From: Alphaproteobacteria bacterium
Lineage (GTDB): Bacteria > Pseudomonadota > Alphaproteobacteria > Rs-D84
Length of the DNA stretch: 64,000 nt
Assembly (NCBI GenBank): GCA_029059055.1
Contig: JAIDWS010000004.1
Location: forward strand, 18,593 to 82,592
Direction of reading: 5' to 3'
In this document: positions 48,001-51,000 of the stretch, piece after piece
Position numbering within the stretch: the stretch's first letter is position 1
Layout of the letters: every line of letters begins with the position of its first letter
Program-made: the position numbers

Positions 48001-51000
48001 TTGTGGGAATTGGAAAATTATATCATGGGGCATAATAATTCGATTCCGCCGCACTTTATCAATCCGCGCGGATACGTGTCCCTGGCGCGGGCGATATGTC
48101 GCCGGTCGGAACGCTTGGTGGTCGCGATGATGGAATCAGAACGCGCGGTGCCGGATGCGGAAAAATACGGCATGAATTTGATACCGGTGATTCAGTACTT
48201 AAACAGACTCAGCGATTATTTGTTTGTCAAAAGTTTTGAACGCACCGAAACGCAACCGGAACTGTTCCGGGATGAAATGGCCAAAATGGCCGTTATGTAA
48301 AAAAACGCCCGGTGGGGCGTTTTTTTCTTTACACACAACTGGATTTTTTCCAAAATAGATGTGCCGACGGGTGTTCCGTTGGCGGGGTGTCGAAACCCTT
48401 TATCAAGATGCGACGCGTCGCATAAAAATCTGGACGGTTTTCAAATTGCGGCGCCATCGGATAAACATCCGATGGCGTGTGCATTTGGGCAACTGTTCAA
48501 CCCCCAACCATCGGTTGGAGGGTGGCGATATATCTGAATAAGCCCACAATTCTTGATAATTGTTTCGAACCTCCAACCACCTGAAAATGACGGTGGTTTT
48601 TGTTTTGCAAATTGGGGGATGTAAAATGAATTTCAAAGTGATGGTCGGGTTGCCCGCGCTGATGATGGTGGTGATGCCGGTATGGGGGGCAACGTTCAAT
48701 ATGACCCGTAATGATGAAATGTATGCGCTGGAAAATCCCGGTGCAATATGTTCTGACCAGGGACACAGGGTGATTATATGCCGATGCGGGGCCGATCAAA
48801 ATCCGGCGCCGCATTACGTGACGGATATGTGTATGCCGGGAATGTCGTTTAGTGGCAGCGGATGTTATTTTTCAGATACAATCGATGACAATACCAAAAC
48901 ATTTTGTGTGACCGCGAATTCGGCAAGTACTGCATCTACTTGCAGCTTATGTAATTGTTTGGATACCACGGAAAATTGGGTGTCCATCGGATCAAACCGC
49001 GTCAGTCGGTATGTCAAGAATGCCCCAGATAGCAACGCTGTTGAAAACCAATACACATGCCAGGTTCGCGATTATACAGAATACGGATGTGCGGCGGGGT
49101 ATTATCAATCGGGGGGCAGTGGTGCGTCAATGACGTGTACGCGTTGTCCGACAGAAAGTAATTTGACCGGAACCAACGATGTTGGTGATACGAAACAGAC
49201 ATCATGTCATATCGCATCCGGCACCCGGTTCAGCGATACCAGCGGTTCCGGCGAATATTTCGGCAACAGTTATTGGTGTAATTAAAAACGCCCCACGGGG
49301 CGTTTTATTTTTTTCCAAAATGTTTGCGCAATGTGTCGTATGCGCTGGAAATCCGGGCAAATTGTTCGGCGGCATTTTTGGCGTTTCCGGCCGTGTCGGG
49401 ATGGTATTTTTTTGCCAATGCGCGGTATCGGACACCAACGTCGCGCCACGATGCGGACATGGGTAAATCCAGTACCTTTAACGCGGCGACAATTTGCGAT
49501 GGAACGGATTTTTTCGGTGCCACATGGTCGAATGCCGCGCGGCCGGTTAAAAAATCGTTGATGAATTTGGCGTAATCCGCCGCATCAGTGTTGGCCTGGG
49601 TTTTGTCTTTCAGGGCCGCGCCGAATGTCTGTTTTTCCCAATCCGCTTCGATTTCATCGGGCGTCATGTCCGCGTAATAATTCCAATTTTTATTGTATTC
49701 GGCCGCGTGTTCCCGACAGAAAAACCAATAATCTTTTAAATCGCGCGATTTGGGCGCGCGGCATGTTCCGGCCTTGGTACATCCAGTATGGTCGCATTTC
49801 TTTATCATGTGTTAAAATTCCTTGTGTGCCAATGGGTGATGGTCTTGCACGGTTTGGACCAACCGGTCCGGCATAACGTGCGTATAAATTTGGGTGGTCG
49901 AAATATCTTCGTGCCCCAGCATGGTTTGTATCGCGCGCAGGTTCGCGCCGCCCGCCAACAAATGTGACGCAAACGAATGGCGCAGAACGTGCGGACTGAC
50001 CCGGGCGGGGTCAATGCCGGCCAAAACCGCGCATTTTTTTAAAATCTTGAAAAATCCGTCGCGGGTAATGTGGCCCGATTTGCCGCCCGATGGAAAAACG
50101 TATTTCGCACCGGGGGAACCCGGCGGCATGTCCGGGCGCAATTCCATCCATTTGGCCAGTGCGGCGGCGGCTGTATCGTGCATGGGGACAATGCGTTCTT
50201 TGGCACCCTTGCCGTGGATTAACAGGGCGCCCTTTAAAATACCGGTGACGGGTAATTCACATAATTCCGATACGCGCAATCCCGATGCGTACACCAATTC
50301 CATCATCGCGCGCAGACGAACCGTATGACGGACATCGCCGGCCGACGATATTAATAATTCGATTTCATCGGGGCTTAAATATTTCGGCAGATTTTTTTGA
50401 CGCTTGGGCAATTCAATGTCGGCGGCGGGATTTTCGGAAATGATTTTTTCCAGCATTAAAAACTTGTAAAACCCCCGCATGGCGGATGCCTTGCGCGCGA
50501 TGGATGTGGGGCGTTCGTCCAGCGACGCCAAATACCCCGACAAATCGTCGGCCGTTGCCGTGGTCAAATCCCCCAATGCGTCGGATGCCAATCGCAAATC
50601 TGTGCCATATGCCGCGATGGTTTTTTTGCTGCGCCCCCGTTCCGCAATCAACGCTTCTAAGAAAATATCGATGTAATTCATGGATACAGAACGATTTCCG
50701 TCATGTGCGATACAGGTGAAAACGAAATAATCATCAGCGCCACAATCACGACCACAATGGCCCAGATAATGATTTGATTGCGCGTGGTGTGCTTTTTCTT
50801 AATCGGCATATGTGTTGTCCCCCATTGAATTAAATCGTGTCAAAACTGGCGATAAATGTGCCGGCGGCCGCAATGATAATCAGCGGCGGCGCAATAATGG
50901 CCAGCAATGTTGGCAATGCCCCGGTCGCCCCCAACGCATTGAACATGTTCACCAGAAAATACAGGGCAAAGCATGTGATAATACCCAGCCCGAATTTCAC

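Follow-up and report, generated by a model that had tools for sequence, protein, structure and literature searches.

The 64,000-nt stretch of contig JAIDWS010000004.1 analyzed here (hereafter the window), from an alphaproteobacterium of the order Rs-D84, carries a structured 5′ leader, L2, between a PduO-type cobalamin adenosyltransferase gene and a gene for a Cys-rich exported protein (Table 1). The protein encoded behind L2 has 219 aa, a signal-peptide-like N-terminus, 15 Cys residues and no Pfam domain. A preliminary description, made by inspecting the window, had placed in L2 a promoter, a hairpin termed P0, three segments able to pair in alternative ways, an intrinsic terminator and a ribosome-binding site (RBS); on checking the sequence, every L2 element listed there was present. 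Just 25 nt separate the U-run of the terminator from the ATG. The 242-nt leader folds at −111.3 kcal/mol, compared to −71.9 ± 5.3 kcal/mol for dinucleotide shuffles (z = −7.5), and the identical L2 sequence occurs in a second public assembly (an ENA metagenome contig). In our view, L2 is very probably an attenuator of transcription that acts in cis and can adopt either of two folds.

At least four related elements lie in the window: L2, its short-type sister L1 and two longer elements, X3 and X4. All four share one plan, a 9–10 bp closing stem around two hairpins whose 3′ strand overlaps the 5′ arm of a terminator, and a GGGGG-type RBS and start codon are found 3′ of L1, L2 and X4. Pairing between segments 2 and 3 is a perfect 9 bp, as had been proposed, and the A-U pair of L2 that replaces a G-C pair of L1 is a true compensatory change (alignment column 7:71). 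The folds of L1 and X3 are likewise more stable than shuffled sequences (z = −6.9 and −5.5, respectively). No fifth copy was found in the window, where a scan with a loose structural descriptor gave chance-level extra matches only.

Table 1. Positions of the leader elements and adjoining genes in the window
Feature	Positions	Strand	Details
PduO-type cobalamin adenosyltransferase gene	47758–48300		5′ neighbor of L2
L2 promoter	48328–48333 (−35), 48351–48356 (−10)	+	TTTACA, 17-nt spacer, CAAAAT; consensus scan
L2 P0 hairpin	48363–48383	+	GCCGACGG-GUGUU-CCGUUGGC; at or just past the predicted transcription start; present in the fold
L2 upstream arm	48384–48408	+	GGGG 48384–48387; first segment UCGAAAC 48390–48396; second segment UUAUCAAGA 48400–48408
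L2 first arm pairing	48390–48396 with 48562–48568	+	UCGAAAC/GUUUCGA, perfect complement
L2 second arm pairing	48400–48408 with 48551–48559	+	UUAUCAAGA/UCUUGAUAA, perfect complement
L2 variable insert	48408–48499	+	palindromic hairpin AUGCGACGCGUCGCAU 48408–48423; long hairpin 48431–48499; minimum-energy fold
L2 segment 1	48501–48509	+	CCCCCAACC; predicted decoy partner of segment 2
L2 three-way junction (predicted antiterminator)	48513–48578	+	closing stem 48513–48521 (segment 2, GGUUGGAGG) with 48570–48578 (segment 3, CCUCCAACC)
L2 junction hairpin 2	48522–48545	+	loop GAUAUAUCUGAAUAA; no inner hairpin
L2 junction hairpin 3	48547–48562	+	loop CUUGAU
L2 junction strand	48563–48569	+	UUUCGAA
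L2 intrinsic terminator	48575–48606	+	AACCACC 48575–48581, loop, GGUGGUU 48592–48598, then UUUUUGUUUU
L2 RBS and gene	48614–49285	+	GGGGGA 48614–48619; ATG 48626; stop 49285
L1	16782–16966	+	extended −10 UGAUAUAAU; P0 16800–16816; arm 16823–16840; segment 1 16862–16867; junction 16878–16943; terminator 16940–16966; then gene for a 61-aa BppL_N-domain protein
L1 first arm helix	16823–16830 with 16927–16934	+	UUGAUAAC/GUUAUCAA
L1 second arm helix	16834–16840 with 16918–16924	+	CAUCAGG/CCUGAUG
X3	16436–16700	−	longer subtype; junction 16476–16564; own arm, segment-1-like stretch and terminator
X4	18850–19092	+	longer subtype; junction 18977–19060; sits after two tRNA genes

To collect the family, a degenerate pattern fitting all four window copies was run on a one-genome-per-species collection. 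The pattern recovers L1, L2 and X3 in the window, with a chance expectation of none. At least 118 loci in the collection matched, together with one real copy on a viral contig; four of the five viral matches to the first pattern were chance. Once 10 true tRNA-Gln or tRNA-Pro genes and about 13 chance matches had been removed, the matches listed comprise 111 distinct members in 74 genomes, with up to five copies per genome as a lower bound, which bears out the proposal that L1 and L2 belong to one conserved, covarying, terminator-containing leader class. The family is apparently undescribed.

Nearly all hosts are uncultured gut or rumen Alphaproteobacteria of the order Rs-D84, labeled Candidatus Enterousia, ‘Rickettsiales’ or RUG/RGIG metagenome-assembled genomes. 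The Ca. Enterousia/Rs-D84 order comprises uncultured gut bacteria with genomes of about 0.75–1.6 Mb (PMC12306168). Four members (L015, L025 (CAZJGX), L030, L085 (CAVGNU)) sit in bins labeled Muribaculaceae and Bacteroides fragilis; as the distribution is otherwise strictly alphaproteobacterial, these contigs are probably mis-binned.

The members fall into a short L-type of about 69 nt, which includes L1 and L2, and a longer X-type of about 75–95 nt, which includes X3 and X4 and keeps an inner hairpin within hairpin 2. Ten L-type members (L015, L022, L045, L054, L057, L067, L071, L085, L097 and L128) have an extra hairpin within the hairpin-2 loop, in the arrangement GAAUAAUGC[hairpin]AAAAUAAGC, and are structurally intermediate between the short L-type and the X-type form.

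Comparative evidence for the three-way junction comes from several directions. RNAalifold, run unguided on 76 L-type cores, predicted the junction, with compensatory double changes in 8 of 17 pairs. In a hand-refined 20-pair structure, 96.6% of the cells are paired, compared to 30–54% when the partners are slid by 1–3 columns, and the 129 compensatory cells exceed the 41.6 ± 6.3 of column shuffles (0/500 shuffles reach 129). The similarity of L1 and L2 is not limited to the terminator hairpin: a junction-only covariance model that leaves the terminator out gives 78.0 bits for L2, 75.9 bits for L1 and 23.4 bits for the antisense strand of L2. G16 and A17, which open the hairpin-2 loop, and AAUAA, which ends it, are invariant and unpaired, and these positions were not constrained by the search pattern.

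The G-rich closing stem followed by RCC resembles a tRNA acceptor stem with its discriminator base and CC, and the pattern caught genuine tRNA-Gln and tRNA-Pro genes (L021, L027, L048, L055, L065, L092, L099, L116 and L126). The idea that the leaders are tRNA-like elements was nevertheless rejected, as ARAGORN is negative on the leaders and the RCY tail is imposed by the pattern; this applies equally to L2, in which the 3′ strand of the closing stem runs into ACC. In the window, ARAGORN and the Rfam tRNA model called only tRNA-Gly and tRNA-Tyr (18277–18444).

The second set of pairings competes with the junction. Minimum-energy folds of all four window copies lack the junction and instead contain a long-range helix from the region after P0 to hairpin 3 and the junction strand, a segment 1:2 hairpin and the terminator. 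We assessed the long-range helix across the family with a swap control, in which arms were exchanged between members with different 7-mers. The junction-strand 7-mer, which ends 1 nt before the 3′ strand of the closing stem, is fully complemented in the member's own arm in 87/90 cases compared to 5.4% of swaps. The 7-mer takes 28 distinct sequences, its complement is found 54 nt upstream in the median, and the duplex energy is −23.5 vs. −14.6 kcal/mol (p = 3e-16). A second arm segment, within 24 nt after the first, complements the hairpin-3 loop in 43/61 members vs. 1.6% of swaps, with 55 distinct 6-mers. It covers the whole loop (median 9 bp) and invades at least 2 nt of the stem in 40/56 members, and therefore cannot coexist with hairpin 3. 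X-type members show the arm pairing in 16/19 cases vs. 8.5%.

This two-part helix is the main second lock of the leader. The preliminary description had missed it as such, having seen part of it under the wrong homology: it took helix P1 of L2 for that of L1 with its strands swapped. L1 UUGAUAAC/GUUAUCAA is homologous to L2 UCGAAAC/GUUUCGA, and L2 UUAUCAAGA/UCUUGAUAA to L1 CAUCAGG/CCUGAUG, and the apparent swap is therefore a misalignment of the first arm helix of L1 with the second of L2; both helices are real. The insert between the arm and segment 1 differs in length and sequence among members and in L1 consists of a short hairpin only. GGCAA, once put forward as a conserved block, is the 3′ end of the variable hairpin plus an A-rich linker and, judged by eye and unquantified, is not strictly conserved.

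We also asked whether paralogues in one genome avoid sharing arm words, an ‘orthogonal address’ that would hint at action in trans. Sharing of arm words stands at 5.1% within genomes and 4.9% between genomes, and the idea was dropped for want of a signal.

With four copies in 64 kb, several per genome, long internal complementarity and a very stable fold, the elements might also be taken for a dispersed, MITE-like mobile repeat carrying a promoter and a terminator. We put the probability of this at next to nothing. Although highly diverged in sequence, the copies retain their pairings by compensation (the arm words number 28 and 55), and they stand in a fixed orientation to the gene that follows. 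We noted neither terminal inverted repeats nor target duplications, and a repeat search of the window yielded no near-identical copies. BLAST of L2 against phage and plasmid collections likewise returned nothing meaningful and no near-identical copies.

Segment 1 provides the decoy. A full complement of closing-stem nucleotides 2–8 lies within 30 nt upstream in 75/90 members compared to 8/90 for a control window, and the sequence of segment 1 tracks the closing-stem variants. The terminator was found in 87/90 L-type members. In 79/87 it overlaps the 3′ strand of the closing stem, the overlap being 4 nt in 64 members and 3 nt in 15; in L2, the first 4 nt of the terminator are common to both. 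The logic of 1:2, 2:3 and terminator pairings read from L1 and L2 thus extends to the family.

Such classic 1:2, 2:3 and 3:4 alternative pairings, together with a Shine-Dalgarno-like GGAGG in segment 2 that is followed by GUG in some members, recall ribosome-mediated attenuation at a leader peptide, as in trp. The candidate start is not conserved, however, and its position covaries as a hairpin-2 pair (U-A, C-G, U-G; column 15:32). In addition, the sole ATG-initiated open reading frame (ORF) in the L2 leader (48359–48541) starts upstream of the predicted transcription start, and sequence inspection found no conserved small ORF over segment 1. We regard a leader peptide as extremely unlikely.

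At the 5′ end, a consensus scan by itself does not make the L2 promoter significant (1 match vs. 0.7 expected). Its −10 box CAAAAT, however, lies 39 nt 5′ of the arm and coincides with the family-wide peak, in which TAnAAT-like boxes cluster 36–40 nt from the arm (a single 5-nt bin holds 47/87); it is this conserved position that speaks for the promoter first proposed. P0 is present in 87/87 members with a median stem of 8 bp. Pentaloops of the form G-N-(G/A)-U-U (GUGUU, GGGUU, GAGUU, GUAUU and GCGUU, with GUGUU the commonest) occur in 40/87.

Energetically, the balance lies with the arm: its helix is part of the minimum-energy fold in 82/84 members, compared to 1/84 for the closing stem. Forcing the closing stem costs a mean of 11.6 kcal/mol (14.6 kcal/mol in L2). 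Both sets of pairings, the junction on one side and the arm plus decoy on the other, are conserved with compensatory changes and are mutually exclusive.

We propose that in the stop fold the arm (48390–48408) would pair with the hairpin-3 loop and the junction strand (48551–48568) while segment 1 pairs with segment 2, leaving segment 3 free. AACCACC/GGUGGUU would then form, and RNA polymerase would terminate at the U-run. In the read-through fold, segments 2 and 3 would close the three-way junction, occupying 4 of the 7 nt of the terminator 5′ arm, and transcription would run on into the gene. Because the stop fold is the more stable and its 5′ partners are transcribed first, default expression would be low and read-through would need a positive input. 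From the sequences and predicted energies, we infer that the folds alternate in vivo, that termination takes place and that the read-through fold is the ON state.

We hypothesize that the likeliest input is a common trans-acting factor, a protein or small ligand, that would recognize the invariant parts of the junction, namely its G-rich closing stem and, in hairpin 2, the GA...GAAUAA loop. A common junction-binding factor is favored because the arm words vary freely whereas the closing stem and hairpin-2 loop are nearly invariant. A rival reading is a riboswitch, in which the junction would be an aptamer for a small molecule or ion whose binding stabilizes the closing stem and prevents termination. 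A conserved, covarying junction with invariant unpaired nucleotides would suit an aptamer, as would a terminator fold that outweighs the antiterminator in stability, a property of ON-type switches, and the recurrence of the same junction with another platform, RBS occlusion, in phage copies of the Rfam family sRNA-Xcc1 (discussed below). The genes behind the junction (Cys-rich exported proteins, XRE regulators, a methylase, phage antirepressors) have no metabolic theme in common, though, and the conserved loop may be a scaffold motif; we regard the riboswitch as possible but doubtful.

Downstream genes bear on whether the leader acts in cis. In 104/111 members, an RBS and a same-strand ORF lie no more than 200 nt downstream. 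At least 63/104 of these ORFs have a signal-peptide-like hydrophobic start by a crude heuristic that misses obvious cases, the L2 protein included, and about two-thirds of the downstream genes encode exported proteins. The largest single cluster of downstream proteins is formed by 16 small XRE-type helix-turn-helix (HTH) proteins. Exported proteins that contain Cys make up a group of 14 and another of 10 (8.4% Cys in the group of 10), and there are 7 small ‘NQTMAGTYTV’ tail-fiber-like proteins, a cluster that the 61-aa BppL_N protein of L1 matches. Pfam searches confirmed HTH_31/HTH_3, a Listeria-Bacteroides surface repeat and an EcoRI-type methylase, and one protein of 640 aa has a Walker A (P-loop) motif. 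The suggestion that the leaders are dedicated to surface or secreted proteins therefore holds for the majority but not for the XRE-type, methylase and Walker A proteins: the association between leader and gene is kept across species and is not exclusive to exported proteins. Nor does the L2 protein stand alone, since its C-terminal ~60–75 residues (145–219) resemble proteins behind three other members (L019, L084 and L039).

These observations also bear on the reading that L2 is a free trans-acting small RNA (sRNA), ending at the terminator, with the gene expressed independently. This is how sRNA-Xcc1 is described, as an RNA of the trans-acting, Hfq-type kind; the default fold ends in a strong terminator, from which a ~240-nt RNA should accumulate, and X3 has no gene behind it. 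Set against this, an RBS and ORF follow directly on the same strand in nearly all members, the 25 nt from the U-run of L2 to the ATG leave no room for a promoter, and the overlap of terminator and junction in 79/87 members is an attenuator design. The same protein families moreover recur behind the leader across species, and the window holds no excess of complementary sites elsewhere (9 matches to GGTTGGRG vs. 5.4 ± 2.1 expected). A free sRNA is thus unlikely.

Several points weigh against cis-acting attenuation as we propose it. X3, as a copy without a downstream gene, raises the possibility that some copies may act as free RNAs, and the downstream genes have no one common pathway that would point to a ligand. 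The closing stem, the 5′ strand of hairpin 2 and the RCY tail appear more invariant than they are, because much of their sequence was prescribed in the search pattern. A pattern-free search with the covariance model did recover copies that the pattern had not selected, two of them with covarying closing stems (GUCAGGAGGG/CCUCCUGAC and ACCAGGAGAG/CUCUCCUGG), but only four copies come from it. Conservation in the loop may reflect a scaffold role and not recognition. Alternatively, the first arm segment may pair with the junction strand of an intact junction in a compact pseudoknotted fold, and RNAfold cannot evaluate pseudoknots. A local GGGG/CCC stem, found in 51/87 members vs. 42% of swaps, is too invariant to tell an H-type pseudoknot from a nested helix. 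Kinetic or temperature control and processing by RNase P or RNase III are further alternatives.

The recurrence of the leader ahead of Cys-rich exported, tail-fiber-like and small XRE proteins points to an RNA-based cell-surface regulon, the cell surface being the part of Rs-D84 bacteria likeliest to mediate contact with hosts or other microbes. The family also offers unusually clean comparative evidence for two alternative folds and would make a good model for attenuator design and a concrete object in the search for a ligand or protein partner.

Around the sister copies, X3 is transcribed divergently from L1 and has no gene behind it, the next ORF (15782–16336) being convergent; X3 could be a free small RNA or a relic. 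X4 is followed by a 195-aa membrane/methyltransferase-like ORF (19103–19690) with a weak Methyltransf_25 match. Just 5′ of X4 and its gene lies the second copy of a ~40-nt direct repeat (18436–18475 and 18618–18657, 94% over 32 nt, 182 nt apart), the first copy of which consists of the tRNA-Tyr 3′ end and a hairpin resembling a terminator. The repeat looks like an attL/attR scar that a small element left on integrating at the tRNA gene. Signal-peptide proteins without a Pfam domain are encoded at 15782–16336, 17179–18171 and 48626–49285, some of them Cys-rich with CC-containing repeats. With three leader copies, two tRNAs and signal-peptide genes, the 16–19 kb region may be an accessory surface-protein island. 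Upstream of L2, a B12-dependent (class II-like) ribonucleotide reductase gene and, directly 3′ of it, the PduO-type cob(I)alamin adenosyltransferase gene (45787–48300 together) form a pair of enzyme and cofactor activation in a reduced genome.

Turning to known RNA families, Rfam at the gathering threshold gave no match in the L2 region. In a permissive search, sRNA-Xcc1 (RF02221) was the sole matching family, scoring the L2 core (48513–48586) at 35.2 bits against a cut-off of 53, X3 (16472–16564) at 36.8 bits and X4 (18977–19068) at 35.2 bits; L1 had no sRNA-Xcc1 match at E up to 10. True members score 65–82 bits, and those we fetched from PLSDB records 69–73 bits. In the other direction, the L-type model finds true sRNA-Xcc1 loci at their exact Rfam coordinates (31.5, 23.3, 17.1 and 12.9 bits), and the similarity is therefore reciprocal. 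The L2 family is a divergent, terminator-bearing branch of the sRNA-Xcc1 architecture, a distant relative whose scores lie below the cut-off for formal Rfam membership. The preliminary description was right that a real RNA class is at hand, but the class has relatives.

Both families share the G-rich 9–10 bp closing stem, hairpin 2 with GAAUA...GAAUAA-type loop flanks, hairpin 3, a U-rich junction strand (UUUCGAA or UUCUUAA types), partner sites that covary with the junction strand and the hairpin-3 loop, and a position just upstream of a same-strand gene. They differ within hairpin 2, where the inner hairpin AAUACAAUACCCG.AAGGGGAAUA (ACCCG.AAGGGG) of sRNA-Xcc1 is missing in L2 while X3 and X4 keep a diverged version; the X-type is thus closer to sRNA-Xcc1 than the L-type, and the L-type members with an extra loop hairpin again lie in between. 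True members have an RBS-side partner and almost never a terminator (6/93), whereas the L2 family has the upstream site, the overlapping terminator and the segment-1 decoy. Hosts and downstream genes differ as well. In Gamma- and Betaproteobacteria, sRNA-Xcc1 is carried by phages, integrons and plasmids and precedes antirepressor, KilA-N, BRO or SymE genes; the L2 family is chromosomal, occurs in Rs-D84 gut Alphaproteobacteria and precedes genes for exported proteins and XRE regulators.

Among the PLSDB members, those of Pseudomonas and Nitratidesulfovibrio lie on plasmids and those of Aeromonas and Neisseria gonorrhoeae on chromosomes. Each is closely followed by a gene on the same strand that, where identified, is of the BRO or KilA-N type. 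Two of the PLSDB ‘plasmids’ (L002, NZ_CP119140.1, Neisseria gonorrhoeae, 2.17 Mb; L003, NZ_AP026896.1, Aeromonas caviae, 4.94 Mb) are evidently chromosomes, and at the Neisseria locus a strong and a weak sRNA-Xcc1 copy stand in tandem ahead of a KilA-N-like ORF.

For a larger comparison we used 93 phage-borne sRNA-Xcc1 members, 15/16 of which, where tested, lie above the gathering score. Their junction strand has a downstream partner adjoining the RBS in 73/93 members vs. 19% for 6-mers and in 51/93 vs. 7% for 7-mers, and an upstream partner in 71/93 vs. 22% and 33/93 vs. 8%, respectively. The next ORF begins a median of 47 nt after the core, a T-run is present in 6/93 only, and the proteins are P22_AR_N-type antirepressors and relatives. 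In IMG/VR contigs (L129–L248, e.g., L130 and L131), the antirepressor Shine-Dalgarno sequence lies inside or directly after a complement of the hairpin-3 loop, preceded by a second stretch that complements the junction strand. This arrangement suggests c4-like translational control in cis or trans, contrary to the family annotation. In the L2 family, by comparison, the downstream RBS partner site is absent (5/90 vs. 2.4% of swaps).

In the searchable literature, sRNA-Xcc1 figures as an Hfq-type sRNA of Xanthomonas that is integron-, transposon- and plasmid-borne and regulates distant targets in trans under HrpG/HrpX control; its position upstream of a symE or ORF6N gene is mentioned in passing only. 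In our analysis, this presumed trans-acting virulence sRNA appears instead to belong to a leader whose covarying partner sites lie around the phage antirepressor RBS, in a c4-like layout. The junction of both families might even be a sensor for one common input (a small molecule, ion or host protein) coupled to two platforms, RBS occlusion in the antirepressor-type leaders of phages, integrons and plasmids and the double-locked terminator in Rs-D84. We rate this as a minority possibility; if true, it would define a new widespread riboswitch-like class and, in a gut lineage with reduced genomes that is probably cell-associated, the principal switch governing surface and secreted proteins.

In phages P1 and P7, the c4/immI region is reportedly laid out as a1/b1, the c4 RNA, and a2/b2 over the RBS. 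The L2 family shares with c4 (RF01695) and c4-a1b1 (RF03163) the complementary sites upstream of a small structured RNA with antisense loops in the leader of the regulated gene. It differs in having an a1/b1-like upstream pair without the RBS-covering pair, and in that control is predicted to go through an intrinsic terminator, whereas c4 acts through translation-coupled Rho termination. Were the family a c4-type antisense system as in P1 immunity, the junction RNA would be processed free of its a1/b1-like arm and pair over the RBS to block translation. The phage sRNA-Xcc1 loci, with complementary sites upstream and on the RBS side ahead of P22-type antirepressors, are compatible with this, as are a weak c4-a1b1 match of L1 over P0 and the arm (19.7 bits vs. 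a cut-off of 46.7) and the closing stem followed by RCC, which resembles the end of an RNase P substrate. We nevertheless judge it very unlikely for L2: its family lacks the downstream site, no C4 or c4-a1b1 match was found in L2 at E up to 10, and the RCY tail is pattern-imposed in leaders in which ARAGORN sees nothing tRNA-like. True sRNA-Xcc1 loci gave no C4 or c4-a1b1 match at E up to 0.05 either, and the c4 likeness is therefore one of analogy and not of membership.

Rfam families of the classical attenuator and riboswitch kinds do not match L2. In design, the leader resembles classical attenuators (the trp leader, PyrR-pyr, T-box and LicT-RAT) and ON riboswitches (pbuE adenine), in which the antiterminator shares nucleotides with the 5′ arm of the terminator and has a competitor upstream. 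The antiterminator is also the less stable of the two folds, like that of T-box and RAT leaders, which need a stabilizing factor. Compared to these systems, the L2 family differs in its double lock, a two-part long-range helix combined with the segment-1 decoy, and in having no leader peptide.

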